A DNA stretch of 50,906 bases from Thermoplasmata archaeon (GCA_020696395.1 JAEHCN010000002.1:1-50906), one strand, 5' to 3'. Numbered from the stretch's first letter, positions 8,505 through 26,124 are shown. Notes: generated from the letters alone by a model not told the origin. Made by a program: numbers and translations.

Positions 8505-11500
8505 TCAGCAGGCTTCGGGTCTACGGACCACACCGACCGCCAGCGCCGCAATCGCAATCAGCACCGCGAATGCCATGCCCATCAGGGCCACCATCTCGGC
8601 CACGATAGATGTTGATGCGGACACCGAGGACGGAGCTGAAGCGGCTGCAGGCTCCTCGGCGACCACGCCGATTGCCGACGGTGCGCTTGACGCTGCCACC
8701 ACCTTACCCGGAGTCGCCACATTGAACTCGATCCACGGGGCGCCGTGGTACAGCGTACCGTCGTCACGCACATCGTTCGTGAACTCGTACGGCCCGTTTA
8801 TGGTGAGCACTTTGTCCGCGAACTCCCAGTTCGTGCAGGTGTTTAGGTCGTACCAGCCAAGTGACATATCGCCAGTGTACCGAAGTCCGTCATAGACGCT
8901 CTGGTCGTCGTCCCATACATCGGCCATCGCGTCAGCAGGCACATCGTCAGCGTAGTATCCGACCACATCGTAGTCCGGCAGCTCGATCACCAGCTTGCCG
9001 TACTCCGGCAGGGTGAAGGCCCACGGGCACGCCTCATAATAGATCTCCGACCCGAGGCCCGGGTCTCCCACATTCCAGCTCTGATATGTCAGGTCGAGAT
9101 ACGGGTCGTAGTAGGACATCGGATGCTGCGTCATCGAGCCGATGTAGTCGATCCCTATGGGCTCCCAGACCCATGCGCAGTCGTTGCCGGTCGTCTCGTT
9201 CGCCTTAACGGCGTGCATGCCCCACTGGGCGACCCCGTCCAATTCGAAGTCCACATCGCTCTCGCGATAATCGATGACCACCTTGATGTCTTCCATGTAG
9301 GGCTGGTTGACGGACAGCTCGGTCGCGAGCGTCCACCGGGTCAGCAGGACCTCGTACCCCCACGTCACATGGACGATGTTCAGCGTGACCTCGGAGCCGT
9401 CCGAGGTCATGTCCATCATCGTGATCAGCTCGTCGTAGAAGTACTCGTATCCACAGTAGATGTCGTACACATTGTTCCCCTGGTCATCGATCCAAGCCAT
9501 CCAGTCGGCCTTGTACGAGTCCCGGTTGGCTGCCCACCAGTCGTCAGGGTCGTCCCCCTGCGGCATGCCCATCCACTCCTCCGCCGCCTCACGGTTCATC
9601 GTGACGTTCATCAGGTTCATCGTGATGTAGCCGTCGTTGCTGCTGAGGTAGCCAACATCATAGCTGTCGTCCCAATCGATGTTTGAGCTCCATGTCGGCT
9701 CGAAGTAGTTGGTCCACTCGTCGGTGTTGGCGTACTGGCAGTAGATGTCCATCGAGACCTCGGAGCCCGGTACAGGTCCGGAGTCCACCGTGTACATGAA
9801 CACCGGGTCGTGCACGTTCATGTTCGGCAGGAACACGCCTTCGACATTCCACCTGTACGGAGCGTATATCAGGCCCTGGTCCCTCATACCGTTTGGTTCG
9901 CCACCGCCTTCGGAGTTGTACAAGTAGGTAACGTTCCCGGCATCGGTCGTCAGGAACGCCTCAGTGTTCCACGTGCTGTCCCACCGGATATCCCACCACT
10001 CCTTGGGAGTCTCTCCGAACATGTCGTAGACCTTCCACGTTATGTCCGAAAGGATGGGCTCGATGACCTCCAGCGTCAGGACGGCGGATATCGCCGCGCC
10101 GTTGTCCGTCGCAGTAACGGTCTGCGTACCGAGCTCGTTCAACGACAGGTCGTCGAACTGGTGCACGCCCTCGTCATCGATCGGCTGGAACTCGTATGAG
10201 GCGGGTAGCTGCTCCAGCCCGCTCCCGTCCGAAGTGGCGAACTCCACTGTCCCGGCGTACTCCTCGTACACCTCATCGTACTGGTGGTACGCGGTCACTC
10301 TGACCGAGAACAGTTCGTCCTGCTCGAACGTGTCGTCTCCGCCCACGGTCTCCATAGTGAGGGAGTCCAAATACAACGCCTCTATCACGATATCCTCCTG
10401 CGAGCCATTGATCGTCGGGTCGCCGACCTCCTCCACCGTCACGTTGTACGTGTTCGGGAGGTCGAAGGACACGGCCATCGGGAAGGTCTTCACTCCGTTG
10501 TCCGTGGCCGGGACGAAGGTGTAGTCCGACGGCAGGGTGTCACCGCCGGATGTGGCGTTCGAGTCGAACGTGACCGTGCCGTCGTAGTCCTCGAATACGG
10601 TCCCCATGTTGTCGATCGCGGTCACCGTGACATCCGAGTAGTTGTTCTCCCACATGTCGATGATGCCAGAGACCTCGAAGTGGTCCATGGTGACCTCCGC
10701 AACTACCCACGCCTCCAGGCTACCGGTTATGGACGGGTCGCTCGTGTCGTTGGCCCAGATGGTGTAGTACGTTCCCACGACCGGGGTGGCCACATGGAAC
10801 GTCAAGTCGACATCCACATACTCCGTTCCGAGCGAGAACGGCGTGTCGCTCGGCAGGGTGACATCTCCGGTTCTGTTCGTCTCGAAGGTGACAGTCCCGT
10901 CGTAGTCTAGGCAGGGTCGATCATACTGGTCCATGATGGTGACTATCATCGTCTCGAGTATGTCCACCTCTGCCGGTTCACTCACTCCCGTGAGCACGAA
11001 GTGGTGAGGAACCGCTTCCGGGAGGACATCTGTGGACGCAACGCCATATGCTTCGGAGTCGGCGACATCGCTCACATTGACCTCGAAGGTGCCGTCGGTG
11101 GAGAACGTCACGCTGAACGTCTGCACGCCGTCCATCTCAGAGGTGAACGCGGTGTCGGCTGGGAGCGTCGCACCTGTGTCGTCCGAGGTGAAGTTGACAG
11201 TGCCGACATATCCCGTATACACTTCGTCCCACTGGTTCATGGCGGTCACCGTGACATCCGTCGGCTCCGCTGCAATGACTGGGTCGCCGGAGAACGCGAC
11301 ATCGAATGCTGCAATCGCTGGCCATTCGACCACCTGGATACCACTCACCGTGCCGGTCGCCTCGCTGTCGGAGACATCGGTGACGGTGACGAAGTACGTC
11401 GCCTGATGGGCCTCCGAATCGACCGTGTTGAATGTCACGGTGAACTCGTGCACGCCGGCGTCCGTCGCCGGGACGAACTCGTAGTTGGCAGGCAGGACAG

Positions 11501-13736
11501 CGGTACCGTCGTCCGACTCGAAGGTGACCGTTCCAGCGTAGTCCTCTGCCAGATCTCTGGAGATGCTCGTCACCGCGGTGACCGTGAACGTCGCAGGCTC
11601 GCCGACGGACACCGGACCGGTGGGACCCTCGATATCGAGGTCGTATCCTTCATCTTCGGTTGCACCGACAATCTCGATGAATGGTATGCCGTACGGCAAT
11701 ATCTCGAGGCGATCCCACTCGCTCTCGAGCCATTCGTGGGCAGTCTGATCCTTCGACCAGGTCCACATATCGAACGGGCCCGTGTACGTGATCTGCCTGG
11801 CGTCGGTGTCGATCTCCACGATGTCTGTGTCGCTCGGCATCGGCTCGGCATATCTCACAGTCATTTCGTCGTAGAATTGCCGCGTGTCAGGCCAGAGAGT
11901 TTCGCCTTCGTAGCCTGGCTCATGCTTGAAGAATATCTGGGGGCCAGCGGGCCACTCTATTGTCAGTGTTTCGTTCTCAGTCAGATTCCAGGCGCCTGGA
12001 GAATAGTCGTAAGCCATGTCTTCACCGTACCAGGTGCTTCCCGGTGCCCAGTTGAGGTAGGTGAAGGGTTCGTACAGCTCGAACAAGGATGGCGGGTACG
12101 CGTCGGACGGCGCAGGGACATAATCCTCCATGAGGGCCTCCCAGCACCAGCACGGAGCCGAGTCGGGCGTGTCCTCGTACGCGTACGTAGAATACTGGAC
12201 GGCGGCGTCGGTGTATACGTCGGCCCGCTCAGGCCCGATGGTTGCCTGGAAAGTCATGTCCTCGAAGTACCACTCAGTGGGCATCCACGCTTCGTGCATC
12301 CATCTGGTCATGAGCGCCTCCATGCCCCAGCTGACCGTGTCGAACGTGAGCAGGACATGATCCGCATCAGACTTCTCAGCCTGCATGTCGAAGTACATGA
12401 ACTGAAGGTCCCACTCGTACATGTTGAAGATCGCTAGCCTCTCGGGACCGGCCTCGTGCAGCATCCAGGCCTCCCAGGCGACTGTGACCTCGTCGGCGTT
12501 GTTAGTCCACCAGTCGCTGAAGGTGTCGAACTCGGTGCTCGTGAGCCCGAGGACCGCCTTCGCGGCATCCTCATCCAGAAGTACCGTCCCAGACCATTCG
12601 ACGAACCAACCATCGTACCACGACATCTGTGCAGCGGTACATGTCTCCTCAGCCTCCTCGTACGTTACGTAGTCAATGTGCCAATCGAGGGTGGCTGTTC
12701 CACCCCTGGCGGTCTCGGAGAAGTACGGAAGGAACTCAGGGTTATCGTTCATGTTCACCTCCGGCAAGTTCTCGGCTACCATGTCCATGCGCATGAATGT
12801 GTATACCCAGATGTTGCCGTTTGGAGGGCCTTCCCAGATGTACAGATACGGATACTCGTTGTTGATGATCCACTCGTTGGATCCAATCGCCCTCATCTCG
12901 TACCAGTCGCCGAGCGGGTGGTTGAACATGTCGTCCCAGTAATAATCGACGGACCGGGTGAAGGTCAATCCAACATTCACCATAGCCGTGCCTGATGCCT
13001 CTTCCGTTCCCTTCGTGGCGGTCGCGGTCAAGTTGGCGACACCCTCGACCGACGCCGAGAATGTGACACTGGAACCGGTCGTCGCGCTCAGGGTGTAGTC
13101 GGCTGAGTCCATGCCGGTCACGGTCCAGGCGAGCGACGCGTCTGTTACCGGACCACCAACGGAATCATAAGCGGTCGCGTTGAACGTCCACTCCTCATTC
13201 AGGTCCAGCGACATGGCTGAAGGTACTATGCTGACCGAATCAAGGAAGGGCGGCTCCACGGTGATCGGAGAGTCCACAACGACCGTCTCCCCGTCGTACT
13301 CCGCTTCACAACTCACCGTTCCTGATCCTCCAACATCTCCCGCAGTGAAACGCACGGTAGGTTGTCGAGTCACATCGAACGACCCGAGAGTCGACGGGCT
13401 CACAGACCAAGTCAAGTCTGCATCGCCGGTCACGTTGTCGTTGTCCGACTTGACGATCACAGACAACGATATTGTCGTGCCCGCGCCAATATCAGGAATC
13501 GGATCTGGTGCTATCTCCGCCGAGAGATCCGGCTTGGCTATCACCAAAACATAGAGCGCGCTGCCGATCAACGCGGCAACCACGATTATTGCCACGACAG
13601 TAATCCACATCTTCTTCTTGTCACCCTTCTTCGGCGGCGAAGCCAATTCTGGCTGCGCTGGCTCCGCTGGCTCCGCGGGTGGACCAGAAGCATTCTCCAC
13701 TACAGCTGACTCGCTAGAATCTACGTTCTCTGACAC
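8505..13736 (-). CDS. giant acidic cell-surface protein (Ig-like repeats plus duplicated Trp-rich module, C-terminal TM anchor)
   Basis: 1743-aa uninterrupted ORF. It has an N-terminal TM/signal helix, Big_2-like domains, five to six Y.GTV.F.S.D...LP..Y.F repeats, two homologous ~440-aa W/Y/D/E-rich modules, a Ser/Ala linker, a TM helix and an RRPEAC tail. Confidence 0.85.
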   Translation of the reverse strand: MSENVDSSESAVVENASGPPAEPAEPAQPELASPPKKGDKKKMWITVVAIIVVAALIGSALYVLVIAKPDLSAEIAPDPIPDIGAGTTISLSVIVKSDNDNVTGDADLTWSVSPSTLGSFDVTRQPTVRFTAGDVGGSGTVSCEAEYDGETVVVDSPITVEPPFLDSVSIVPSAMSLDLNEEWTFNATAYDSVGGPVTDASLAWTVTGMDSADYTLSATTGSSVTFSASVEGVANLTATATKGTEEASGTAMVNVGLTFTRSVDYYWDDMFNHPLGDWYEMRAIGSNEWIINNEYPYLYIWEGPPNGNIWVYTFMRMDMVAENLPEVNMNDNPEFLPYFSETARGGTATLDWHIDYVTYEEAEETCTAAQMSWYDGWFVEWSGTVLLDEDAAKAVLGLTSTEFDTFSDWWTNNADEVTVAWEAWMLHEAGPERLAIFNMYEWDLQFMYFDMQAEKSDADHVLLTFDTVSWGMEALMTRWMHEAWMPTEWYFEDMTFQATIGPERADVYTDAAVQYSTYAYEDTPDSAPCWCWEALMEDYVPAPSDAYPPSLFELYEPFTYLNWAPGSTWYGEDMAYDYSPGAWNLTENETLTIEWPAGPQIFFKHEPGYEGETLWPDTRQFYDEMTVRYAEPMPSDTDIVEIDTDARQITYTGPFDMWTWSKDQTAHEWLESEWDRLEILPYGIPFIEIVGATEDEGYDLDIEGPTGPVSVGEPATFTVTAVTSISRDLAEDYAGTVTFESDDGTAVLPANYEFVPATDAGVHEFTVTFNTVDSEAHQATYFVTVTDVSDSEATGTVSGIQVVEWPAIAAFDVAFSGDPVIAAEPTDVTVTAMNQWDEVYTGYVGTVNFTSDDTGATLPADTAFTSEMDGVQTFSVTFSTDGTFEVNVSDVADSEAYGVASTDVLPEAVPHHFVLTGVSEPAEVDILETMIVTIMDQYDRPCLDYDGTVTFETNRTGDVTLPSDTPFSLGTEYVDVDLTFHVATPVVGTYYTIWANDTSDPSITGSLEAWVVAEVTMDHFEVSGIIDMWENNYSDVTVTAIDNMGTVFEDYDGTVTFDSNATSGGDTLPSDYTFVPATDNGVKTFPMAVSFDLPNTYNVTVEEVGDPTINGSQEDIVIEALYLDSLTMETVGGDDTFEQDELFSVRVTAYHQYDEVYEEYAGTVEFATSDGSGLEQLPASYEFQPIDDEGVHQFDDLSLNELGTQTVTATDNGAAISAVLTLEVIEPILSDITWKVYDMFGETPKEWWDIRWDSTWNTEAFLTTDAGNVTYLYNSEGGGEPNGMRDQGLIYAPYRWNVEGVFLPNMNVHDPVFMYTVDSGPVPGSEVSMDIYCQYANTDEWTNYFEPTWSSNIDWDDSYDVGYLSSNDGYITMNLMNVTMNREAAEEWMGMPQGDDPDDWWAANRDSYKADWMAWIDDQGNNVYDIYCGYEYFYDELITMMDMTSDGSEVTLNIVHVTWGYEVLLTRWTLATELSVNQPYMEDIKVVIDYRESDVDFELDGVAQWGMHAVKANETTGNDCAWVWEPIGIDYIGSMTQHPMSYYDPYLDLTYQSWNVGDPGLGSEIYYEACPWAFTLPEYGKLVIELPDYDVVGYYADDVPADAMADVWDDDQSVYDGLRYTGDMSLGWYDLNTCTNWEFADKVLTINGPYEFTNDVRDDGTLYHGAPWIEFNVATPGKVVAASSAPSAIGVVAEEPAAASAPSSVSASTSIVAEMVALMGMAFAVLIAIAALAVGVVRRPEAC

Positions 13737-14463: not shown

Positions 14464-16416
14464 TTGAGTATTGAGAGATTAAGAGTTCTCAGAATCTGTG
14501 CCTCGGTCGTGATTGCGGTTGCCATTGCGATACCTATAGCAGCCGTGACGGACACAATCATCGGAAAGGCGGAGGCTGCGCCCGAAGGAGGAACCCTCCG
14601 AATGGGGTACATGCAGAAGGTCGACAGCCTGAACCCGAATGTTGGTTTGGTCGACGCAGCGTACGTCTTCTACGGGTTGGTATACGATACGATACAGTGT
14701 GTCGACGCGGACCTGAACATAGTAGGCAACCTTGTTCTGAATTCAACCGTGGATGAGACTTACATGCCTTACGGATCGGCCTGGCTGATGGACATAACTC
14801 AACACGCTACCTGGCATGACGGCGAGCCGGTGAAGGTCGAGGACGTCGTGTTCACCGTCAACACCATGGCGGACAACTTCTTGCAGATGTGGGCATATCA
14901 GCCATACGCCTACTACATGGACGGCGCGGAGAAAGTCGACGAGGACACTCTGAGGGTGTACTTCTACGACAGAGGCTCCCTGGAGCAGGAGCCAATGTCC
15001 GCCGCATACGCGAGGATGATATGCATACCGGTCTTCCCGAAGCATGTTGTTGACAAAATGACCATCGGAGACTTCGGGTTCAACTGGATCGGAGCGACCG
15101 AGGGTCAAGATCCACCTCTTGTCGGATCAGGGCCGTTCATGGCAACGGAGAACATCATCGAAGAGTTCACGGTGGGAGACAAGATAACGCTTGTCAAGAA
15201 CCCCAACTATCACTGGAAGCAGGAAAAAGGTCTGGAACTCCAGTTCGATAGACTTGAGATGCGGTTCTTCAACGACGCTTATGCTATGGCTCTGGCCCTT
15301 GAGACGGGAGAACTCGACATCGCCCAGTTCCCGCCTTCGGAGTACCTCGCGATCAAGGATAAGGTAGCGAGCGGTGAGCTCAAGGACATCGAGACCTACG
15401 ACGGACCCAAGTGTACTCAGTACTGGACGGAAGTCGCGATCTGCATGGGCACAGGCGGAGAGAACCCGTCGAGGCTCGACCCGGTCATAAGGCAGGCGAT
15501 GGCTCATGCCACTGACAAGACCTACATCGTGAACAACCACTACCTGGGCCTTGCGGATGAGGGATCGACGCTCATACCTCCTGTCAATGAGCAATGGCAC
15601 TATGAGCCGACGGCAGACGAGCTCTACGAATTCGACCTGGATCTCGCCAACGCGCTGCTCGAGGACGCCGGATACAGACACATAGATGGTTCGGGAGTGC
15701 GGGCGGCGACGGCAGACAGCTACGCGGTACAGGCAAGCCTCGTCCCAGAAGGGACCAAGCTGTCGTACGAAATGGCGATAAGACAGGAGTATCCGGAGGA
15801 GCGGCAGATAGCCATGTTCCTCAAGGAGCAGTGGGGCGAGATCGGCATCGAGATCGTCTATGACATCATGACCGAGGCCGCCCTTGGCAATCTGGTGTAC
15901 ACGTATGAATACGACACGATGATGTGGTACTGGAGCGCGGACGTGGATCCGATGTACCAGCTGTTCTGTCAGACCAAAGCCTCCTTTGGCGGCTGGAACG
16001 ACAACATGTACTCCACGCCGACGTATGAAGAGAACTTCAGGGCCCAAGTCATGGAGTTCGACGTGGAGAAGAGGGAGGAGTACGTGGACAACTGCCAGAG
16101 GGTGCACTACCTCGATGCATACTACCTCATCCTGGCATATGTGTACCAGACCTACGCTTGGAGAACGGACAACTTCATCGGCTGGGGCGACTGGGATGCC
16201 CATCCAGGTCTGAGCGCGGACAATTTCTGGTCCGGAGCTCCGCTCTACTTCGAGCTGGAGTACATAGGCGGACCCGCAATCGAGATCCCGTGGCTGGCGA
16301 TCGGTGTTGGCATGGCGGTCATAGTCGCAGCAGCGGTTGCCGCCGTCGTTCTGAAGAAAAAAGGCGGCAAGAAGAAGAAACCGGAGAAAGAGAAATCGAG
16401 CCCGCTTGGAGAGTAG
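14464..16416 (+). CDS. ABC transporter substrate-binding protein, family 5 (Opp/Dpp/Nik type), C-terminally TM-anchored
   Basis: 650 aa with TTG start, a signal-like N-terminus and family-5 SBP-like blocks (KVDSLNPNV, LVKNPNYHW). A C-terminal TM helix is followed by a Lys-rich tail (VLKKKGGKKKKPEKEK). Confidence 0.8.
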   Translation: MSIERLRVLRICASVVIAVAIAIPIAAVTDTIIGKAEAAPEGGTLRMGYMQKVDSLNPNVGLVDAAYVFYGLVYDTIQCVDADLNIVGNLVLNSTVDETYMPYGSAWLMDITQHATWHDGEPVKVEDVVFTVNTMADNFLQMWAYQPYAYYMDGAEKVDEDTLRVYFYDRGSLEQEPMSAAYARMICIPVFPKHVVDKMTIGDFGFNWIGATEGQDPPLVGSGPFMATENIIEEFTVGDKITLVKNPNYHWKQEKGLELQFDRLEMRFFNDAYAMALALETGELDIAQFPPSEYLAIKDKVASGELKDIETYDGPKCTQYWTEVAICMGTGGENPSRLDPVIRQAMAHATDKTYIVNNHYLGLADEGSTLIPPVNEQWHYEPTADELYEFDLDLANALLEDAGYRHIDGSGVRAATADSYAVQASLVPEGTKLSYEMAIRQEYPEERQIAMFLKEQWGEIGIEIVYDIMTEAALGNLVYTYEYDTMMWYWSADVDPMYQLFCQTKASFGGWNDNMYSTPTYEENFRAQVMEFDVEKREEYVDNCQRVHYLDAYYLILAYVYQTYAWRTDNFIGWGDWDAHPGLSADNFWSGAPLYFELEYIGGPAIEIPWLAIGVGMAVIVAAAVAAVVLKKKGGKKKKPEKEKSSPLGE

Positions 16417-16442
16417 ACCAAATCGTGCGAAACCCCTTATAT

Positions 16443-16487
16443 CCTGATTTCAGCCAAAGGGATGAAAGGCGAACGATAGAAATCAGG
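16443..16487 (+). promoter_or_regulatory. intercistronic stem-loop between the SBP and permease genes
   Basis: Perfect 9-bp inverted repeat CCTGATTTC (16443-16451) / GAAATCAGG (16479-16487) with a 27-nt loop. Confidence 0.4.
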
Positions 16488-16599
16488 GACGGTCAGGAGG
16501 CCCCTGCTCGGCGCAGCGACGAGGGCTGACATGCGGGGGACCGCGCGATGGGACCACAACGCAGGGGAACGCCTTTGGAAGGCACGCAGAACGAAACGC

Positions 16600-17625
16600 A
16601 TGAACCGAAGCAAGGTGAATGGCTTGGTGAGCACGAGGGCATACATCGCCAGGAAGCTAGTCTACGTATTCATCACGTTGATAGTGATAATCTCGTTCAA
16701 CTTCTTCCTGTTCAGAGTCATGCCCGGAGACCCCGCTGCAGTCTTGGTGCCGAAGGGCTGCACCCCGGAGCTCCGAGCGTACTTGTTCGAGATGCTTGGC
16801 CTAGACAAGCCGCTTCACGAGCAGTACGTTCTCTATCTGAAGCAGGCGCTAACGGGCGAGTGGGGCATTTCTACGGGGGTACGCAAATGGGTTCCGGTCA
16901 CGGATGTCATGGGCCCGGCCCTTATGAACACGGTCATTCTCCTCGGAACCGGGACGGTTCTTGCGATAATCCTGGGCGTCTCCTTGGGCAAGTTCGTTGC
17001 CTGGAGGAGAGGCACGGCAGTGGACGCGATAGGCATGAGCGCCGCGCTGGTCTTCTACTCGATGCCGACGTTCCTGTTCGCGCTCTTCCTTCTGATGATC
17101 TTCGCGGGCTACCTCAAATGGTTCCCTATTTGGGGTTCTGAGGGATGGCTGCCGGGGGTCGGGGGCTCGGCTAACCTGGACGAACTCGGTTTAGGCGCCC
17201 GGTTAATCAGCAGGCTGTATCACCTGGTACTGCCGCTCACTGCGTTCACGCTCGAAATCATGGCGGAGTTCGCCCTGATCATGAGAAACTCCCTTACGGA
17301 TGTCCTCACGGAGGACTACATAACCACGGCGCGTGCGAAGGGGCTGTCGAACAAGCAGATTCTCAACGACCACGCGATGCGCAACGCGCTCCTGCCAGTC
17401 GTGACCGTCATGGCAATAAGCATCGGGTGGGTGCTGGGCGGCACGATAATGGTGGAGATGGTGTTCTCCTACGATGGACTGGGTCTCATGACTTGGGACG
17501 CGGTCCTTGCACAGGATTACGCGCTTCTCCAGGCGCTCTTCCTACTCATGGCCATCGCGGTTCTTGTCGCCAACCTAATCGCAGACATGGTCTACGTCTA
17601 CCTCGACCCGAGGGTGAAGGTTTGA
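16600..17625 (+). CDS. ABC transporter permease (OppB/DppB type)
   Basis: Typical N-terminus (YIARKLVYVFITLIVIISFNFFLFRVMPGDP) and multiple TM helices. ATG at 16600 is preferred over the ORF-track start at 16531. Confidence 0.85.
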   Translation: MNRSKVNGLVSTRAYIARKLVYVFITLIVIISFNFFLFRVMPGDPAAVLVPKGCTPELRAYLFEMLGLDKPLHEQYVLYLKQALTGEWGISTGVRKWVPVTDVMGPALMNTVILLGTGTVLAIILGVSLGKFVAWRRGTAVDAIGMSAALVFYSMPTFLFALFLLMIFAGYLKWFPIWGSEGWLPGVGGSANLDELGLGARLISRLYHLVLPLTAFTLEIMAEFALIMRNSLTDVLTEDYITTARAKGLSNKQILNDHAMRNALLPVVTVMAISIGWVLGGTIMVEMVFSYDGLGLMTWDAVLAQDYALLQALFLLMAIAVLVANLIADMVYVYLDPRVKV

Positions 17626-17635
17626 GAGTGAACAG

Positions 17636-19414
17636 ATGAGTGCCCGACACAAGTCGATACAACCGGGAATGGCCTCCAAGGCCGTATGGAGAGGTCGAGC
17701 TGCGGCCCTCATTCCACTGGGCATGATCCTGCTGGCCTGCCTCTTCGTCTTCGCGGGGACAACCTGCAGCCTATACAGCCCCGAGCAGGAGGATGCACGC
17801 AGAGCCTCCGCGCTCTCGCTTCAGGACGCGGTCAGCCCATTGGCGGATGCAGGGTTGTACGACGACGTTCTGGCAGGAGTCATCGTGGAGCTGGACGGGT
17901 CTGGATCCACGGACAATGTTGCGGTAGTGAACTACACCTGGACGATAGAGGACGGGACGACTCCTGTCGTGCTCGAAGGAGAAGTCGTCGAGCTTGTGCT
18001 CTTGGAGCCTGGCACTTACACCATAACGCTCAACGTCTCGGACGCCGAGGGCAACTGGGACACGGACAGCACGCCCATCACGGTCAGAGCAGACACGGAA
18101 CCTCCGATTCCGAGCGGTGTGCCCAGAAAAGTCGTGGTCGGGACACTGGTGGATTTCGACGCTTCCTCGTCAGTGGACAACGCACGTATAGTCAATTACT
18201 CGTGGATATTCGTATATGGCGACGAGGAGGTCGTGTTATATGGCGTATCGCCTTCATTCTGGTTCAACAGGTCGGGGCTGTACGATGTCAACTTGACGGT
18301 AACGGACGCCTCCGGTCTCTTCGGGAGCGTGGTCGTGACCGTTGATGTGTACTCGAACCCCACCTGGTTGTCGGAAAACTGGCTGAAGCTCCTTGTCACC
18401 ATTCTGACCATAGGCGGGGCAACTTATTACCTGGTCAGCAAGATTAAGCGGGACCACGCCCTGCTCACACCCTCCGACGCGGAGAAACTGCGGCTTAAAC
18501 TGAAGGGGGCCAGGAAGACTTGGAAGATATTCCGGTCGAACAGGATCGGTTTCAGCGGTTTCCTGGTCCTGATAGTGTTCATTGTGGTGGGCGTGTTCGC
18601 CCCTTGGTTCTCCACTGTGAAGGACCCCAACCTGTACGACAACCACGAGCCCAACATTCCCGGGGTCGATGGCGCTTGGATCCAGAGGAATCCGTTGTCA
18701 CCGTCGCTCTCGCCCTCGGAGTATCTCGGCGTAGTGCATCCGCTCGGCACTGACTACATCGGGCAGGATGTCTGGAGCATGACAGTGTATGGGACAAGAG
18801 CATCCCTCATCGTCGGCTTGGTGGCGACGGCCATTTCAGCGTTGCTCGGAGCGGGCATTGGGCTGGGTGCAGGTTACTTCGGGAAAGCGACGGACGAAGT
18901 CCTGATGAGGGTGACCGATTTCTTCCTGGTCCTTCCCTGGTTCCCGCTCATGATCGTCATGATGGCGATCCTCGGAAGGGAGTTCGTGTGGATCATCGTG
19001 GTCATTGGCATAACGAGCTGGCCGTCCACTGCGAGGATCGTCAGGTCGCAGGTGCTCACCGTCAAGGAGAGGCAGTTCATCGAACGGGCAAGGGCAGTCG
19101 GCGCAGGGGACGCTCACATCATATCGAAGCACATAATGCCGAACGTGATGCCGCTCATCTTCGCCAACACGGTTCTGTTGATCTCGCTGGCGATATTCTC
19201 CGAATCCTTCCTGGACTTCTTCGGACTGGGAGACCCCACGGTCATAAGCTGGGGGACGATGCTGGAGGGGGCCTACAAATACGGCGCGTTCTATCAGGGG
19301 TCGTGGTGGACCATCGTCCCGCCTGGGCTGGCGATATTGATGATGGTGCTGTCGTTCTCACTTGTTGGATACGCACTCGACGATGTGTTCAACCCGAAGC
19401 TGAGGAAGAGGTGA
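17636..19414 (+). CDS. ABC transporter permease (OppC/DppC type) fused to an N-terminal TM - PKD - PKD - TM module
   Basis: 592 aa. Two PKD-like domains (LDGSGSTDNVAVVNYTWTIEDG...ITLNVSDAEGN and FDASSSVDNARIVNYSWIF...VNLTVTDASG) sit between two TM helices. The canonical OppC core follows (HPLGTDYIGQDVWSMTVYG...). Confidence 0.8.
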   Translation: MSARHKSIQPGMASKAVWRGRAAALIPLGMILLACLFVFAGTTCSLYSPEQEDARRASALSLQDAVSPLADAGLYDDVLAGVIVELDGSGSTDNVAVVNYTWTIEDGTTPVVLEGEVVELVLLEPGTYTITLNVSDAEGNWDTDSTPITVRADTEPPIPSGVPRKVVVGTLVDFDASSSVDNARIVNYSWIFVYGDEEVVLYGVSPSFWFNRSGLYDVNLTVTDASGLFGSVVVTVDVYSNPTWLSENWLKLLVTILTIGGATYYLVSKIKRDHALLTPSDAEKLRLKLKGARKTWKIFRSNRIGFSGFLVLIVFIVVGVFAPWFSTVKDPNLYDNHEPNIPGVDGAWIQRNPLSPSLSPSEYLGVVHPLGTDYIGQDVWSMTVYGTRASLIVGLVATAISALLGAGIGLGAGYFGKATDEVLMRVTDFFLVLPWFPLMIVMMAILGREFVWIIVVIGITSWPSTARIVRSQVLTVKERQFIERARAVGAGDAHIISKHIMPNVMPLIFANTVLLISLAIFSESFLDFFGLGDPTVISWGTMLEGAYKYGAFYQGSWWTIVPPGLAILMMVLSFSLVGYALDDVFNPKLRKR

Positions 19415-19529: not shown

Positions 19530-20414
19530 TCACTGCTTCGCTGCCAGCTCCGCCTGCCACTTCCTGTAGTAGGTCAGGTAGCCCATCGCGAACTTGTCCT
19601 CGCCCCAGAAGAGCTTCGAGGCCTTGAGTGCGAACATCATGTCCGCATCGTTCGGGTTGCCGATGAAGCAGCTCATGCCTTCACCAGCGCACATTAGCAT
19701 GAAGGTGGCATTCAGCTTCGGCCTCGCGGGAAGTCCGAACGAGGCGTTGCTCAATCCCAGCGTGGTGTTCACACCGTACTTCTCGGTCACCGTTCTGATC
19801 GTGTCAAGGGTCGCCATCGCACCGCTGTCGGATGTCCCGCATGCCAGCGCGACGCAGTCGATGATGAGGTTCTTGCGGTCCATGCCGGCCTTCTCGGCGC
19901 GCTCGATTATCCTGCCGGCAATCTCGACCCTCTTCTCCGTGGTCGCGGGGATCCCGGCGTCGTCGATGACCAGACCGACCAACGCCGCATCGTACTCTGC
20001 GGCCAGCGGTATCACGACATCCATCCTCTTCTCCTCTCCGGTGGTGGAGTTGATCCCAGGTCTCCCCTTCACCGTCTTCAGAGCCTCAGCGAGGACTGCC
20101 GGGTCGGAAGTGTCGATCCACAAGGGTACGTCGACCGCATCCTGGACGATCCTGAGGGCTTCGAGCATGGCGTGCTTCTCGTCGATACCTGGAACGCCCA
20201 CGTTGATATCCAGTATGTCCGCTCCGGCCTCAACCTGCTTCTTCGCCTCGCCAGCGAGAACCTCGAACTCGCCGGCCTTCAACTTCTCGATCAGAGCTTT
20301 CCTGTTTGTCGGATTGATCCTCTCTCCGACAATCACGGGGGTGTTGGTCGCCCCGATCTTCACTGTCCTCTCAGTCCCCTTGAGCTCGATGACCGGTACC
20401 TTTGCGCGTGGCAT
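19530..20414 (-). CDS. pterin-binding methyltransferase (methylcorrinoid:tetrahydrofolate methyltransferase-like, MtgA/MeTr/AcsE family)
   Basis: 294 aa. VIVGERINPTNRK, ADILDINVG and a TIM-barrel pterin-binding pattern. Confidence 0.75.
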   Translation of the reverse strand: MPRAKVPVIELKGTERTVKIGATNTPVIVGERINPTNRKALIEKLKAGEFEVLAGEAKKQVEAGADILDINVGVPGIDEKHAMLEALRIVQDAVDVPLWIDTSDPAVLAEALKTVKGRPGINSTTGEEKRMDVVIPLAAEYDAALVGLVIDDAGIPATTEKRVEIAGRIIERAEKAGMDRKNLIIDCVALACGTSDSGAMATLDTIRTVTEKYGVNTTLGLSNASFGLPARPKLNATFMLMCAGEGMSCFIGNPNDADMMFALKASKLFWGEDKFAMGYLTYYRKWQAELAAKQ

Positions 20415-20643
20415 GTTTCATCCTCCCTCAGCCGGGACATCGCCTCGCCCCAGAAAAAGGTTTCGACGACATGCCAGGCCACACATCGGACGTCTCACGA
20501 TGGCCGGCGACCACCTGTCCTGTGGAGGTTGGCTGCGAAGCTTCCGGGTGCGCAGACAGTCAGGACCGCACACGCGGTGAACGGCTTCCAACGGAAACTG
20601 TCATCAAGTAATAAGGCAATCCACCCATGCAGGGTTCGATGAG

Positions 20644-21741
20644 ATGAATCTAAAGCACCCGAGGCCATTCAGATCGCTCTTCAGGTTCTCGAAGCAGTTC
20701 ATGCGGAAATCGGGTTCCCCGCCAGGCACTCTCGTCTACACGGGAGACAAGAAGGTCGATAAGACCCGGATCTCAGTGATGGAGTACAGCGACGCCGAGT
20801 TCTTCGAGAGGGAGGTCGAGGACGTCAGCACCTGCTTCCCTTTGAAGGAGAAACCCACGGTAACATGGCTGAACATCAACGGCCTCCATGATATCCACAC
20901 AATGGAGACCATCGGAAACGCCTTCGGCATACATCCTCTCGTCCTCGAGGACATACTCAACGTCGACCAGAGGCCGAAGTTCGAGGATTTCGAGGACTAC
21001 ATCTTCATCGTTCTCAAAGTGGCCTACCTCGACGAGACGAGGAACGACCTCCAGATGGAACAGATAAGCCTCATAGTGACGCGGAACTGCGTGATAACGT
21101 TCCAGGAGACGGAGGGCGACGTGTTCGAGGGCATCAGGGAGCGCGTCCGCAGCTACAAGGGGCGCACCAGACGCATGGGGGTGGACTACCTTGCGTACGT
21201 CCTCATAGACGCGATCGTCGACAGCTACTTCGTGATACTGGACAGACTTGGGGAACGCACGGAGACGCTGGAGGACGAGCTGGTGGCGAAGCCAGACCCG
21301 GAGACGCTCCAGACGATATATCGTCTCAAAAGGGATATGATATTCCTCCGGAGGGCGGTCTGGCCCCTGCGTGAGGCGATCGGCGCCCTCGGGAGGGACA
21401 CCAGTCCGCTTTTGCAGGAGAGCACCCAGGTGTACCTGAAGGATGTCTACGACCACACCATACAAGTGATCGACACGGTCGAGTCGTTGAGAGACATGGT
21501 CACGGGTATGCTGGACATTTATCTGTCGAGCGTCAGCAACAAGATGAACGAGATCATGAAGGTGCTGACGATCATAGCCACGATATTCATCCCGCTGACC
21601 TTCCTCGCAGGAGTCTACGGGATGAACTTCAGGTACATGCCCGAGCTGGAGTCCCACATCGCCTATCCTCTGCTACTGATTGGCATGACTTGCGTGGCCG
21701 CTCTGATGCTCGTCTACTTCAGGATCAAACGCTGGCTGTGA
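20644..21741 (+). CDS. corA: CorA-family divalent cation (Mg2+/Co2+) transporter
   Basis: 365 aa. YGMNF signature (GVYGMNFRYMPE) before the last TM helix, with two C-terminal TMs. Confidence 0.9.
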   Translation: MNLKHPRPFRSLFRFSKQFMRKSGSPPGTLVYTGDKKVDKTRISVMEYSDAEFFEREVEDVSTCFPLKEKPTVTWLNINGLHDIHTMETIGNAFGIHPLVLEDILNVDQRPKFEDFEDYIFIVLKVAYLDETRNDLQMEQISLIVTRNCVITFQETEGDVFEGIRERVRSYKGRTRRMGVDYLAYVLIDAIVDSYFVILDRLGERTETLEDELVAKPDPETLQTIYRLKRDMIFLRRAVWPLREAIGALGRDTSPLLQESTQVYLKDVYDHTIQVIDTVESLRDMVTGMLDIYLSSVSNKMNEIMKVLTIIATIFIPLTFLAGVYGMNFRYMPELESHIAYPLLLIGMTCVAALMLVYFRIKRWL

Positions 21742-21937
21742 GTCGCGGACAGCTGCTGCGGGACAACCTTCGTCACGGCCGTGTTGGCAACGAATCCCGG
21801 CGAACACCTCCAGTCGTCTGTATGGCACGCGCGAAAACGTACAGAAACATTAATTAGGCAACTGCGTATGCCGTCTCAATTCGGATGGAAGTCCAGGGTC
21901 TTCGCGACTGATTGGCCTTTCTTCCGAGCCAACGCCC

Positions 21938-21958
21938 CCCGGAGACACCGTTTCCGGG
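21938..21958 (+). promoter_or_regulatory. stem-loop in the 5' leader of the corrinoid-protein gene
   Basis: CCCGGA-n9-TCCGGG, 22-42 nt upstream of the ATG at 21980. Confidence 0.25.
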
Positions 21959-21979
21959 AAGGCAAGGGGGTATACACCA

Positions 21980-22612
21980 ATGGAAGAAATCGTGACACAG
22001 TTGAAAAACGCTGTGATAAACTACGAGATGGAGACCATCGCCGATCTCGCCAAGAAGGCTGTCGATCAGGGCGTTGATCCGCTAGTCGCCATCGACAAGG
22101 GATTGGCGGAAGGAATTAAGACAGTGGGCGAGAGATTCGGAAAGGGAGAGATCTTCCTGCCCGAGCTCGTCATGGGCGCAGAGGCCATGAAGGCTGCGCT
22201 GGCCGTACTTGAGCCTGCGGTGCCAGCGGGACAGCACAGGGAGACGGCCGGAAAGGTGCTCATCGGGACTGTCCAGGACGACATCCACGAGATCGGAAAG
22301 AACCTCGTCTCGACAATGCTAGCATCGAACGGATTCGAAGTTGTGGACCTTGGCGTCAACGTCCCTGCCCAGGACTTCCTGAAGAAGGCGGGAGAGGTCA
22401 AGGCGAACATCGTCGCGATGTCCGCACTTATGACGACGACCATGCCGAGGATGGCAGAGGTCATCGCTCCGCTCAAGAAGGACAACCCATCCGTGAAGAC
22501 CATCATCGGAGGCGCACCAGTCACGGACGTGTACGCCAAGGAGATCGGCTCCGAGGGGTACAGCGGCGACGCGTCTGGAGCCGTCGACGTGGCGAAGAAG
22601 CTCCTTGGGTGA
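21980..22612 (+). CDS. cobalamin-binding corrinoid protein (MttC/MtbC/MtgC type)
   Basis: 210 aa. N-terminal helical cap and a Rossmann B12 domain with DxHxxG (QDDIHEIGKN). The stop overlaps the next start. Confidence 0.9.
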   Translation: MEEIVTQLKNAVINYEMETIADLAKKAVDQGVDPLVAIDKGLAEGIKTVGERFGKGEIFLPELVMGAEAMKAALAVLEPAVPAGQHRETAGKVLIGTVQDDIHEIGKNLVSTMLASNGFEVVDLGVNVPAQDFLKKAGEVKANIVAMSALMTTTMPRMAEVIAPLKKDNPSVKTIIGGAPVTDVYAKEIGSEGYSGDASGAVDVAKKLLG

Positions 22613-24087
22613 GTGCAATGTCATACGGCATCGTGCGCGGGACGCGCTTCCAGATTCTGAGCAAGGATGACCTTGACAGGATCCACTGGGGCACACTGCA
22701 CATCCTCGAGAAGGTCGGTGTACAGGTCGACAGCCCCACATGCAGGAAGCTCTTGAAGGAAAACGGCTGCGAAGTCGATGAGGAGGCAAGGTCGGCCAAG
22801 ATACCTTCCCACCTCGTCATGGAAGCTCTCAGCAAGAAGAAGTCCACGATTACCCTCGCTGCAAGGGACCCAAAATATGACGCGAGACTCGACCTGAATC
22901 ACAGCTACATGTGCGCGAACGGTAATGGCGCTGTGGCGGTGGACTTCGAGACGGGTGAGAGGAGGAACTCGACGAAGCAGGACCTGGTCGACTCCACGAA
23001 GATATGCGACGCCCTGCCGAACGTGCACGTCCACTGGCCGATGGTCAGCTCGACCGACGTGCCAGCGTCTGTCGTGCACCTGCACGACCTTGAGGCCTCT
23101 CTGAACAACACGGGGAAGCACGTCATGTACGAAACGGGCGTGACTCTCGAGGACGCCAAGAACCTAACGGCCATGGGTTACGCGGCGGCTGGGGGCGAGA
23201 AGGAGTACCGCAGGAGGCCGATCACATCGTGTCTCCAGTGCACCTACGCGCCCCTGCAGCACGACGCGGGCGTCATGGACGCCAGCCTGGAGTTCGCCAA
23301 GAACGGCGTGCCACTGGTGTTCTTCACCATGCCACAGCCCGGCGCGACCGGCCCAGCGTCGCTGGTCGGTTCGATGGTCGTGGGCAACGCCGAGGTTCTG
23401 AGCGCACTCGTGATGACCCAGCTCGCGTCTCCGGGTGCGTCCGTGATATACGGACTCGGCATCGCTCCGCTCGACATGAAGACCACCGTCAGGGCGGGCG
23501 GCAGTCCAGAACATGCGATATGCTCGGCGATGGGCACGGAGATGGCACACTACTACGGCATGCCGTCGTGCGTGGGCGTCTCCGGGACCGCGAAGGAACC
23601 AGGCATACAGGCCGCCATGGATACCTACACCGGCTGTGTCGGTCCCCTGCTTGCTGGCGCCGACCTCATGTGCGGCATAGGCTTGCTAGAGGACTCCAGC
23701 TGCCTCCACCTCGAGCAGGTCGTGATCGACAATGAGATTGTCGGGGCCATTGCAAGGCTGATCCGTGGCGAGTGGGCGGACGACGACACGCTTGCGCTGG
23801 ATGTCATCGAGAAGGTCGGGATCGGCAAGAACTACCTTGCCCAGAAACACACGATGAAGTACCTCCGGACGGACCACTTCATGCCGACGCTTGTCGACAG
23901 ACGCTCAGAGGACGCCTGGTCGACGACCGGGAAGAAGACCATGAGAGACTCCGCCAGGGAGAAGGTCAAGGAGATACTGGCTACTCACAAGGTACCGGGG
24001 CTCCCAGACGGCGCGAACAGAGACCTCGCAGCGATCATAGAGAAGGCGAAGAAGCCCTTGTGGGGCGGCGAGTCGAAGGTCCACTAG
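22609..24087 (+). CDS. MttB-superfamily methyltransferase, pyrrolysine-free (quaternary amine:corrinoid methyltransferase candidate), paralogue 1
   Basis: 492-aa uninterrupted ORF with GTG at 22609 or ATG at 22618. MttB-like blocks: PQPGATGP, RAGGSPEH, GIGLLED, VIDNEI. No in-frame TAG. Confidence 0.8.
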   Translation: MSAMSYGIVRGTRFQILSKDDLDRIHWGTLHILEKVGVQVDSPTCRKLLKENGCEVDEEARSAKIPSHLVMEALSKKKSTITLAARDPKYDARLDLNHSYMCANGNGAVAVDFETGERRNSTKQDLVDSTKICDALPNVHVHWPMVSSTDVPASVVHLHDLEASLNNTGKHVMYETGVTLEDAKNLTAMGYAAAGGEKEYRRRPITSCLQCTYAPLQHDAGVMDASLEFAKNGVPLVFFTMPQPGATGPASLVGSMVVGNAEVLSALVMTQLASPGASVIYGLGIAPLDMKTTVRAGGSPEHAICSAMGTEMAHYYGMPSCVGVSGTAKEPGIQAAMDTYTGCVGPLLAGADLMCGIGLLEDSSCLHLEQVVIDNEIVGAIARLIRGEWADDDTLALDVIEKVGIGKNYLAQKHTMKYLRTDHFMPTLVDRRSEDAWSTTGKKTMRDSAREKVKEILATHKVPGLPDGANRDLAAIIEKAKKPLWGGESKVH

Positions 24088-24226
24088 GCTATGCAGTGTA
24101 CAAACCTGAAACCGGGGCCAGGCGAGGAAGTCGTCCTGGCTCCGAGCAATTGTATTTCTATCGCACGCGGCCCGCCGAAGAGGCTTGGCCGCGCGGGCTG
24201 GCAGGACGAACCAGAAGGGATTCAGA

Positions 24227-25669
24227 ATGGCTAACTCCATACCGATAAGGTGCAAGCGGCAGGTACTGGACTCCGAGGGCGTGCAGCGGATCAGATACGC
24301 CGCGCTCGAGATCCTCGAGCGAACGGGTGTCGCCGTTATGAGTAAAAAAGCGCAGAAACTCCTCCGTGACGCAGGATGCGATTTTGACGAGAAAAGTTCA
24401 ATTGTGAGATTCCCTCCGAGCCTCGTCGAGGGCCTCGCCCGTAAGAACAAGCGGAGCGTGACATTCTTCGGGCGGACCCCGAGGCATGACGCGAGGCTCG
24501 ACGGCGAGCACGTCCATGTGTGCAGCGATGGGAACGGCACGATGGCAATGGACTTCGAGACGAGGGAGCGACGCGTATCCAGGAAGGAGGATGTCGGGAA
24601 GGCTGCATTCGTATCGGACGCGCTGAAGGGGCACGGAGTGAACTGGCCCAGCGTGACCTCTCAGGACGTCCCCATGGGGACCAGGCACATACACGACCTC
24701 CAGGCATCCCTGGAGAACACTGAGAAGCACATCACACTGGCCACCAACACGACCTATTGGGAGGTCGAGGACGTGCTGGCACTCGGCGCGGCGGCTGCAG
24801 GAGGAATCGATGAGTTCGAGAAACGACCGTTCCTGTCGTCAATCCACACGAGTTCGTCACCGCTTCAAATCGACGCGGACGGCATCGACGCCGGGTTCGT
24901 CGCAGCGGACGGCGGGATGCCCATCTGCTTCTATGTCATGCCAGGTCCGGGCGCCACCGGTCCGGTCACCCTTGCTGGCTCAGTAGCCGTCGCCGTCGCC
25001 GAGGCCCTGGCAGGCAACACGATAATCCAGCTGCACAGGCCGGGAACGGCCTTCGTGTTCGCATGCGGGATGGCGGTACTGGACATGAAGGCGTCCACCC
25101 GGGCCGGAGGAGGGCCTGAGCACGGGTTGACATCCGCAGCTTACACGCAGATGGCGCACCACTTCGGATTCCCCGCTCTTTCCGGAGGTTTCGTGACCAC
25201 CTCCAAGGAACCGGACGAGCAGGCGGCCTACGAGAAGTTCGCCAGTGCGGTGACCCCGATACTCGCAGGCACGGACATGCTCGCCGGGATCGGGCTACTC
25301 GAAGACTGCAGGACGATATGGCTGGAGCAGATGGTTATCGACGACGAGATCTCGAGGATCATAGGCAGGATGGCTCAGGGAATCGAAGTCTCAGACGACA
25401 GCCTCGCGCTCGATGTGATCAACAGCGTGGGCCCGGGTAAGGACTTCCTCGGGCAACGACACACCATGGAACGCTTCAGGAAGGAGCATTTCATGCCTGT
25501 GATATCGGACCGCTCCTCATGGGATTCGTGGACGGCAGGGGGTTCGAAATCCACGCTCACCAGAGCTGGTGACGAGGTGCGGAGGATACTTAAGGAGCAC
25601 ACCGTCGAACCGGTGAGGGACGAGATGGGCGAGGTCGCAGCTTCACTGATCAAGAAGAGAGCCAAGTGA
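24227..25669 (+). CDS. MttB-superfamily methyltransferase, pyrrolysine-free, paralogue 2
   Basis: 480 aa from the ATG at 24227 (ORF open from 24185). It has the same conserved blocks (PGPGATGP, RAGGGPEH, GIGLLED, VIDDEI). No in-frame TAG. Confidence 0.8.
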   Translation: MANSIPIRCKRQVLDSEGVQRIRYAALEILERTGVAVMSKKAQKLLRDAGCDFDEKSSIVRFPPSLVEGLARKNKRSVTFFGRTPRHDARLDGEHVHVCSDGNGTMAMDFETRERRVSRKEDVGKAAFVSDALKGHGVNWPSVTSQDVPMGTRHIHDLQASLENTEKHITLATNTTYWEVEDVLALGAAAAGGIDEFEKRPFLSSIHTSSSPLQIDADGIDAGFVAADGGMPICFYVMPGPGATGPVTLAGSVAVAVAEALAGNTIIQLHRPGTAFVFACGMAVLDMKASTRAGGGPEHGLTSAAYTQMAHHFGFPALSGGFVTTSKEPDEQAAYEKFASAVTPILAGTDMLAGIGLLEDCRTIWLEQMVIDDEISRIIGRMAQGIEVSDDSLALDVINSVGPGKDFLGQRHTMERFRKEHFMPVISDRSSWDSWTAGGSKSTLTRAGDEVRRILKEHTVEPVRDEMGEVAASLIKKRAK

Positions 25670-25686: not shown

Positions 25687-26124
25687 TCATTCCTTGACGG
25701 TCGAGAACGACGCGCATGTCAGCGTCCTCGCGACTCCCTCGACGTCCCTGAGCCTGTCGACCACTAGGTTCCCAATCTCCTCCATGCTGGAGCCTCTGAC
25801 TTTCAAGAGGATGTCGTACTCCCCTGACACAAGGTGTACCTCGAATATCCCGGGGATATCGGCGATTTCCTCGGCGGTCTCACGCTGGGACCGTCCTTCA
25901 GCGTGATCGAACTGGGCGAGTATGAACGCGGTCACACCGATGCCTAGCTGGGAGTAGTCCGGGACCGCCGTGTATCGCCTGATGACCCCTCTCGTCTCCA
26001 TGCGTGCGATCCGGTCGTGTACAGTCGCTCGTGGTATGTCCAAGGCTTTGGCGATCGCCTTCGTCGTCTTGCGAGAGTCTTTGGTGAGTTCCTCCAGGAT
26101 CGATCTGTCCTTCTCGTCCAACAT
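25687..26124 (-). CDS. Lrp/AsnC family transcriptional regulator
   Basis: 145 aa. N-terminal HTH (DRSILEELTKDSRKTTKAIAKALDIPRATVHDRIARME) and a C-terminal RAM/ACT-like domain. Confidence 0.9.
   Translation of the reverse strand: MLDEKDRSILEELTKDSRKTTKAIAKALDIPRATVHDRIARMETRGVIRRYTAVPDYSQLGIGVTAFILAQFDHAEGRSQRETAEEIADIPGIFEVHLVSGEYDILLKVRGSSMEEIGNLVVDRLRDVEGVARTLTCASFSTVKE

Follow-up and report, generated by a model that had tools for sequence, protein, structure and literature searches.

A candidate corrinoid-dependent methyl relay to tetrahydrofolate encoded by a conserved gene cluster of Thermoplasmata archaea

Layout and conservation of the locus

The analysis concerned a gene cluster at positions 19530-25669 of a 50,906-nt stretch of DNA from a Thermoplasmata archaeon (GCA_020696395.1, JAEHCN010000002.1:1-50906), hereafter the 51-kb window. 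An earlier note, made from the sequence alone, had described the cluster as a complete corrinoid methyl-transfer module of an apparently archaeal genome, consisting of a pterin-binding methyltransferase, a corrinoid (B12-binding) protein and two pyrrolysine-free enzymes of the MttB family. The four genes were present and intact, scored well above the family thresholds, and appeared in a six-frame list of open reading frames (ORFs) as uninterrupted frames at 19530-20414 (-), 21980-22612 (+), 22609-24087 (+) and 24185-25669 (+). The proposed overlap of the corrinoid stop codon with a GTG start of the first MttB-like gene (22609) was abandoned, since the orthologues make ATG 22618, 5 nt past the corrinoid TGA, the more likely start, and the same start is used in entry P0001. 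The second MttB-like gene most likely starts at ATG 24227 rather than TTG 24185, judging from the sequence and the orthologues. The two enzymes are called MttB1 and MttB2 below; they are the candidate first methyltransferases (MT1), and the pterin-binding protein is the candidate second methyltransferase (MT2). The core genes are as follows.

19530-20414, minus strand: pterin methyltransferase (MT2 candidate), 294 aa; standalone, Pterin_bind and NF005719
21980-22612, plus strand: corrinoid (B12) carrier protein, 210 aa; PF02607 and PF02310
22618-24087, plus strand: MttB1, 489 aa, stop codon TAG; PF06253
24227-25669, plus strand: MttB2, 480 aa; PF06253

MttB1 and the pterin-binding protein both had their closest homologues exclusively in Thermoplasmata metagenome-assembled genomes (MAGs), which confirmed the archaeal origin and placed the host in order UBA10834, equated with Ca. 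Gimiplasmatales in a 2024 paper. A scan of species-representative genomes recovered 25 Thermoplasmata loci with 67-94% identity, one of them from isolate UBA10834, the namesake of the GTDB order. When the genes were mapped with tblastn, every locus long enough to judge had the order pterin methyltransferase (minus strand), an optional CorA gene, the corrinoid gene, MttB1, MttB2, an Lrp-type regulator (minus strand), and then asnA-like, thrB, thrC, hom and ask genes. The stretch from MT2 to the Lrp gene was kept in more than 20 loci with MttB1 identities of 73-94%, unaffected by the insertion or deletion of CorA, and the MT2 gene adjoined the operon in all orthologous loci.

The methyltransferases and the corrinoid carrier

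In the profile search, both tandem ORFs of about 490 aa belonged to the MttB family, as the earlier note had proposed: MttB1 matched PF06253 (MTTB) with 315.3 bits over model positions 29-497 of 500 and MttB2 with 303.7 bits over positions 30-495 (cut-off 25). Against TIGR02369, the equivalog model for trimethylamine methyltransferase, MttB1 scored 460 and MttB2 414 bits, both under the cut-off of 525. MttB1 could be aligned end to end with the solved structures of MttB (7xcl, E 1.1e-80; 275 bits against M. barkeri MttB) and MtgB (2qne, E 7e-61; 210 bits). The two paralogues were 44% identical to each other.

Neither gene contained an in-frame TAG, and the pyrrolysine (Pyl) column held Ser in MttB1 and Val in MttB2, so the enzymes are pyrrolysine-free, as had been noted. 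Among the 33 confident genes of the window, TGA was the stop codon in 22, TAG in 10 (MttB1 itself among them) and TAA in one; TAG as an ordinary stop fits an organism without pyrrolysine decoding. The columns that correspond to published active-site residues of MttB and of the glycine betaine enzyme MtgB of D. hafniense were occupied as follows.

Pyl334 of MttB: Ser325 in MttB1; Val337 in MttB2
Tyr364 of MttB: Cys355 in MttB1; Ala367 in MttB2
Gly110 and Met249 of MttB: conserved in MttB1; conserved in MttB2
Y97 of MtgB: G105 or N106, depending on the alignment, in MttB1; G in MttB2
R312 of MtgB: C321 in MttB1; L332 in MttB2
H348 of MtgB: gap or Cys355 in MttB1; gap or Ala367 in MttB2
F356 of MtgB: S363 in MttB1; C375 in MttB2

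All four glycine-betaine-binding residues of MtgB (Y97, R312, H348 and F356) were thus replaced in both enzymes, and Thr111 of MttB was not conserved either. According to the MtgB paper, MtcB, MtpB, MthB and MtyB have also kept R312, which would bind the acidic group of their substrates; its absence from MttB1 and MttB2 argues against a betaine-like substrate. Judging from published chemistry, the donor is most likely already cationic (for example a quaternary amine or a sulfonium compound), because family members without pyrrolysine cannot activate a neutral amine. The use of chloromethane or other haloalkanes was considered and rejected, CdmB being a member of the UroD superfamily and not of the MttB superfamily.

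The pocket positions were largely constant within the lineage. Residues G105, N106, M241, C321 and S325 of MttB1 were found in all 120 orthologues, C355 in 119 and S363 in 117, and the MttB2 columns L332, V337, A367 and C375 were likewise invariant and unlike those of MttB1. Across 147 related clusters the pocket columns were hypervariable. The invariant residues are best read as a predicted specificity signature. A metal site built from the near-invariant cysteines of MttB1 (C211 and C321 in 120/120 orthologues, C355 in 119/120) was also considered and was dropped, as cysteine is not rare in the pocket among the related clusters.

The phylogeny was inferred as a neighbour-joining tree of 53 sequences, which covered the Pyl-containing MttB of Methanosarcina, Methanomethylophilaceae, Desulfobacterales and Anaerovoracaceae, the MtgB of D. 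hafniense, and homologues without pyrrolysine from Bathyarchaeia and bacteria. The MttB1 orthologues, the MttB2 orthologues and the MttB2-like partners in other Thermoplasmata each formed a group with 100% bootstrap support, as did the three groups jointly, and both enzymes fell outside the separate Pyl clade (97%). MttB1 and MttB2 are Thermoplasmata-specific paralogues that group neither with the pyrrolysine MttB enzymes nor with MtgB. When 1.84 billion cluster representatives were searched exhaustively with HMMER, the MttB1 clade made up one 50%-identity cluster and the next-best cluster was 45% identical; with 1490 clusters at E<1e-30, MttB1 is one among very many uncharacterised branches of the superfamily. 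Members of the MttB2 clade always lay beside an MttB1 orthologue, with the gene order swapped in some lineages. This constant pairing suggests either two specificities or a heteromer; the heteromer may be envisaged because, as described in the MtgB paper, each subunit of a solved MttB-family dimer completes the rim of the other subunit's active site. As a separate observation, a Methanomethylophilaceae MAG (L081, 9405-13240) contained a Pyl-containing mttB followed by a TAG-free paralogue, which grouped with its neighbour (100% bootstrap) within the Pyl clade and carried Thr in the Pyl column and Phe in the Tyr364 column.

The 210-aa protein combined a B12-binding_2 cap (PF02607, 76.9 bits) with a Rossmann-type B12-binding domain (PF02310, 90.5 bits), and its translation contained the motifs DIHEIG (DxHxxG), SAL (SxL) and GG, in keeping with the earlier reading of a B12-binding protein with DxHxxG. 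It stayed under every specific model: TIGR02370 with 199 bits (cut-off 215.3), MtgC with 196 (310), MtbC with 185 (350) and MtaC with at most 128 (cut-off at least 420). By domain and motif content it is predicted to be the cognate methyl carrier, of the MttC/MtbC/MtgC/MtqC type, with no single equivalog assigned. In another Thermoplasmata lineage (L101, 1-3968), a corrinoid gene and an MttB pair were preceded by two divergently encoded major facilitator superfamily transporters, which may act as substrate importers.

The 294-aa protein matched Pterin_bind (PF00809) with 93.8 bits (cut-off 25.5) and passed NF005719, the model for methyl-tetrahydrofolate (methyl-H4F):corrinoid/iron-sulphur protein methyltransferases, with 270.5 bits (cut-off 259). 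Its nearest solved relatives were 4o0q/4o1e/4o1f (E 1.6e-35), the MeTr proteins of C. hydrogenoformans (2yci) and M. thermoacetica, and the folate modules of MetH; PDB entries 4o1e and 4o1f were deposited with methyl-H4F and H4F bound. The motifs IDTS, INST, IDC and GLSNxSFG aligned with 4o0q and 2yci. Of the earlier label "MeTr/AcsE/MtgA-like", the MeTr part stood, in the form of a MeTr/MT-II type, but the AcsE model NF040758 was missed (129 bits, cut-off 370) and the solved MtgA (6SK4) was not matched among the PDB hits even at E<=10. MtgA is a member of the MtrH family, whose model was also missed (19.9 bits, cut-off 287). Two further identities were rejected: dihydropteroate synthase (DHPS), as TIGR01496 gave 22.2 bits against a cut-off of 162.6, and a MetH fragment, as the orthologues are separate proteins with lengths of about 290-330 aa. 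The protein is thus predicted to be a standalone methyl-H4F:corrinoid methyltransferase of the MeTr/O-demethylase MT-II type and not of the MtgA type. Its orthologues (P0123, P0126, P0129 and others) are named "dihydropteroate synthase" by NCBI or "MetH" by JGI, which is likely a systematic mis-annotation that hides MT2 in metabolic reconstructions.

A proposed methyl relay to tetrahydrofolate and its alternatives

Taken together, we consider it reasonably probable (roughly 60%) that the cluster encodes an archaeal relay from MT1 through the carrier to MT2, by which a methylated compound would donate its methyl group to H4F. MttB1 and MttB2 would act as MT1, with two specificities or as a pair, each binding a methylated compound of the "onium" type, most probably a quaternary amine without the carboxylate that MtgB recognises. 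The 210-aa corrinoid protein, in its Co(I) form, would accept one methyl group from them, and the divergently encoded MT2 would demethylate the methyl-Co(III) protein to yield 5-methyl-H4F. The latter would enter the folate one-carbon pool and serve Wood-Ljungdahl acetyl-CoA synthesis, oxidation or biosynthesis, while the rescue of Co(II) would need a RamA-type ATP-dependent activase encoded elsewhere. A Pfam scan of the plausible genes of the window found no URO-D/MtaA/MtbA, Mcr or Pyl gene, in agreement with the earlier statement that a coenzyme M (CoM) methyltransferase is lacking there. The suggestion that the methyl groups go to a pterin pool instead of methanogenesis was also supported: the ORFs score as MttB family, the 294-aa protein is neither DHPS nor a MetH fragment, and neither a CoM methyltransferase nor Mcr was found in the window. 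The direction of flow would be that of the relay described above.

A related arrangement was found in a sister lineage. In an RBG-16-like Thermoplasmata MAG (L024, 4159-10758; also L021), a MetE-like gene, a methylenetetrahydrofolate reductase (MTHFR) gene, a MeTr-type methyltransferase gene and two divergent MttB-like genes were contiguous, and the block adjoined an MttB1 orthologue with 70% identity. The MeTr-type paralogue was 38% identical to MT2 and scored 286 bits (cut-off 259), the further MttB-like genes were 31-34% identical to MttB1, and the MetE-like protein reached 129 bits with NF002119, under the cut-off of 258. This block points, independently of the cluster itself, to a joint function of MttB-family enzymes and pterin methyltransferases with folate in these archaea.

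Comparable relays are known from bacteria. The systems of E. limosum (MtcB, MtpB, MtyB and MthB with MtqC, MtqA and RamQ; the three-part relay has been reconstituted in vitro) and of D. hafniense (MtgB/MtgC/MtgA) also combine an MT1 without pyrrolysine, a small corrinoid protein and an H4F-dependent MT2 feeding the Wood-Ljungdahl pathway, with several MT1 paralogues in one organism. They differ from the present cluster in that the host here is archaeal, the MT1 enzymes form a clade of their own (bootstrap support 100%) and share no more than 45% identity with any other cluster defined at 50% identity, the substrate residues of MtgB are all replaced, MT2 is of the MeTr/Pterin_bind type and no Ram activase is encoded nearby. 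In Ruegeria pomeroyi, a relay of MtgB, MtgC and MtgD (with MtgE) was supported genetically (PNAS 2025); it shares with the cluster an MT1 of pfam06253, a corrinoid protein and a standalone pterin-binding MT2, which lies there beside the MTHFR paralogue metF2, as its counterpart does in L024. R. pomeroyi is, however, an aerobic alphaproteobacterium that uses glycine betaine, and a dual role in methionine synthesis was demonstrated genetically there. The MttB-MttC-MtbA systems of Methanosarcina and Methanomassiliicoccales share with the cluster the MT1 fold and family (7xcl aligns over the full length), the residues Gly110 and Met249, and a DxHxxG carrier, whereas the enzymes studied here lack pyrrolysine, Tyr364 and Thr111, form a separate clade and have a predicted pterin acceptor in place of CoM. 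MeTr/AcsE and the O-demethylase MT-II proteins (2yci, 2e7f, 4o0q/4o1e/4o1f; E 1.6e-35 to 1.8e-28) are the closest solved relatives of MT2 and share its motifs, but MT2 is not encoded with carbon monoxide dehydrogenase/acetyl-CoA synthase (CODH/ACS) or with a UroD-type MT1, and it does not reach the AcsE model.

A system of this kind has already been proposed for UBA10834/Gimiplasmatales, and the idea is in this sense not new. Zinke et al. reported UBA10834 and RBG-16 MAGs with non-Pyl mttB and corrinoid genes and without MtaA, mcr and pyl, and suggested methylotrophy unlinked to methane; in Ca. Gimiplasmatales, methylotrophic acetogenesis by way of H4F was proposed in the Slate River paper (2024). 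The lineage was reported to have an H4F methyl branch, and Fhs, FolD and MTHFR together with acsA-E, and similar non-methanogenic methylotrophy has been proposed for RBG-16-68-12, Brockarchaeota and the Asgard Atabeya- and Freyarchaeia. These proposals concern the same lineage and genes, but the second methyltransferase was called lacking or undescribed there, whereas a MeTr-type gene adjoins the operon here; the 2024 reconstruction probably overlooked it because the orthologues bear DHPS or MetH names. The system was therefore already described at the annotation level. The additions made here are the candidate MT2, the residue tests against MtgB- and MttB-like chemistry, the paralogue structure and the conserved leader described below, none of which is categorically new.

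Several observations weigh against the proposed relay. The Pfam scan of the plausible window genes yielded no RamA- or RamQ-type activase, and "complete" in the earlier note is therefore too strong a word for the module. The phylogenetic separation applies to the Pyl-type MttB and to MtgB, the reference enzymes that the tree covered. The whole 20-kb neighbourhood is syntenic within the order, the ABC-transporter and threonine genes being equally conserved, and adjacency within the order is for this reason weak evidence when taken alone. MT2 lies outside the operon under a predicted promoter of its own, with no operator motif in common with the operon promoter, no pterin methyltransferase lies near the corrinoid-MttB pair of L101, and the 294-aa protein might be the AcsE of the organism or part of a split methionine synthase.

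The last point leads to a dual or reverse use, in which the 294-aa enzyme would mainly transfer the methyl group of methyl-H4F to the corrinoid protein, as in a split methionine synthase or as AcsE, and the MttB proteins would be alternative donors, as with MtgBCD(E) of R. pomeroyi. MeTr-type enzymes are reversible, and R. pomeroyi requires MtgC and MtgD to make methionine as well as to demethylate glycine betaine. The cluster lies within a block for aspartate-family and branched-chain amino-acid biosynthesis, the L024 block places a MetE-like gene (129 bits) beside an MttB1 orthologue and the MTHFR-pterin methyltransferase pair, and the "acsE" call in the acsA-E set published for the order could be the 294-aa gene. 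Against this, the window contained no homocysteine-binding, MetE-type or MtgE-like gene and no CODH/ACS gene, the AcsE model was missed by a wide margin, and the MetE-like protein of L024 fell under its own cut-off. We regard such a use as rather unlikely; it would in any case extend the explanation by a relay to H4F without excluding it. That MT2 is a mere syntenic neighbour, with the corrinoid protein and both MttB enzymes using a different, unlinked acceptor enzyme or having a non-catabolic role, is in our judgement improbable. The divergent orientation and separate predicted promoter of MT2, the synteny of the whole region in the order, the L101 arrangement and the distribution of the MT1, carrier and MT2 genes of E. 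limosum over separate clusters would suit it. However, the adjacency outlasts the gain and loss of CorA, a paralogous pterin methyltransferase again lies beside MttB-like genes and MTHFR in the different lineage of L024, and no alternative MT2 (URO-D/MtaA or MtrH type) was found in the window, nor has one been reported for the lineage.

An ordinary methanogenic trimethylamine:CoM system, with MttB, MttC and MtbA leading to Mcr, was rejected and is effectively refuted. The best curated match of both MT1 enzymes was indeed TIGR02369, and MttB1 scored higher against M. barkeri MttB than against MtgB (275 versus 210 bits). Both enzymes nevertheless stayed below the equivalog cut-off and outside the Pyl clade, with no UAG codon or pyrrolysine and with Tyr364 changed to Cys or Ala; genes of the window often end in TAG, no MtbA/MtaA or Mcr was found there, and the lineage has been reported to lack mcr and pylBCDS.

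A more far-reaching version of the relay to H4F combines several elements: MttB1 and MttB2 would be an obligate, possibly heteromeric pair for an onium donor outside the six known substrates and without an acidic group, the neighbour named DHPS would be the "missing" MT2, Gimiplasmatales would be archaeal methylotrophic acetogens, and the operon would be controlled through its structured leader. As a combination this is offered tentatively, and we doubt that all of it holds. With regard to the published reconstructions, an obvious candidate for the "missing" MT2 lies beside the operon under the wrong name "dihydropteroate synthase". The MT1 pocket signatures, invariant and unlike those of every characterised member, define a short list of proteins and allow a rational substrate screen. 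Methylated amines and compounds related to them rank among the major precursors of methane in sediments and soils. Their methyl groups may be diverted to folate, and not to methane, by abundant Thermoplasmata that are not methanogens; if so, these archaea would compete with methylotrophic methanogens, and carbon would be redirected to acetate and biomass.

Regulatory elements and neighbouring genes

The non-coding features and the genes that flank the operon are listed below.

20450-20466, minus strand: promoter-like element CGAAACCTTTTTCTGGG of the MT2 gene; invariant block in 12 aligned upstream regions
20644-21741, plus strand: CorA Mg2+/Co2+ channel; TIGR00383
21844-21872, plus strand: BRE/TATA-like promoter GAAAC(A/C)TTAATTAGG, followed by GCGTATGCC; 18 distinct upstream sequences
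21877-21979, plus strand: structured 5' leader of the operon; covariance model R1
24113-24144, plus strand: GC-rich hairpin and T-rich tract between MttB1 and MttB2; present in 15/15 lineages folded
25687-26124, minus strand: Lrp/AsnC-family transcription regulator; PF01037 and an HTH_AsnC-type domain

Upstream of the corrinoid gene, the B recognition element (BRE)/TATA-like element (21844-21858) and the conserved GCGTATGCC downstream of it were invariant or nearly so in the 18 distinct upstream sequences, with one copy per locus, always 5' of the corrinoid gene. A scan of metagenome contigs with the promoter pattern returned nine AT-rich chance matches and no relative. In single-sequence folds, an outer helix between GUAUGCC and the Shine-Dalgarno region was seen in some cases; it was not kept in L006, L007 and L014 and was rejected, and for this reason GCGTATGCC was treated as a DNA-level element. 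Its role as a shared operator was rejected as well, since its 17 matches in the window against 10 expected were no more than chance and none lay upstream of MT2. The predicted promoter-like element of MT2 itself, CGAAACCTTTTTCTGGG, was located about 40-50 nt upstream of the start codon in the alignment of upstream regions.

The leader of about 100 nt folded as two hairpins in every lineage, P1 (21880-21928) and P2 (21937-21958), followed by the Shine-Dalgarno sequence GGGGG (21966-21970). The covariance model R1, built from 11 sequences, found one copy per locus and only at the 5' position of the operon, divergent lineages included. In the alignment, 95.4% of cells were paired, compensatory changes affected 11 of 21 pairs, and the covariation score was 0.305 against at most 0.157 for slid controls, figures which the fitting of the alignment to the structure by the model favours. 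No Rfam match was obtained for the leader at the gathering or the permissive threshold, save a meaningless MIR160 match (E 1.1), and the window as a whole gave no Rfam match and no tRNA. Archaeal mRNAs do not commonly have structured leaders. Since sequence conservation is lacking inside P1, the leader is unlikely to be a ligand-binding aptamer and more plausibly serves stability or translation control. Directly after the MttB1 stop codon lay a second hairpin with a T-rich tail; its sequences differed among the 15 lineages folded, and it may serve in attenuation, termination or stabilisation of a 3' end.

The CorA gene (TIGR00383, 321.9 bits, cut-off 200.75) lies between the divergently transcribed MT2 gene and the operon. 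It was present in this window, L005-L011 and L027, and absent from the closest relatives, L003 and L004, as well as from L013-L017 and L092-L097, a pattern that points to recent gain or loss beside cobalt-dependent enzymes. The Lrp/AsnC gene is convergent with MttB2 across a gap of 17 nt, and its position was kept in all orthologous loci; it could conceivably control the operon. The cluster is embedded among genes for the aspartate family and for branched-chain amino acids (asnA-like, thrB, thrC, hom, ask, ilvD and leuABCD). On the other side, the MT2 gene is adjoined by a peptide/opine-type ABC (ATP-binding cassette) importer (14464-19414), with a family-5 solute-binding protein and two permeases and with no adjacent ATPase genes; its OppC-like permease has two N-terminal PKD domains. 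Further upstream, a 1743-aa ORF (8505-13736, minus strand) had no Pfam domain and no PDB sequence match, and homologues with about 38% identity were present at the same position in L015-L017.

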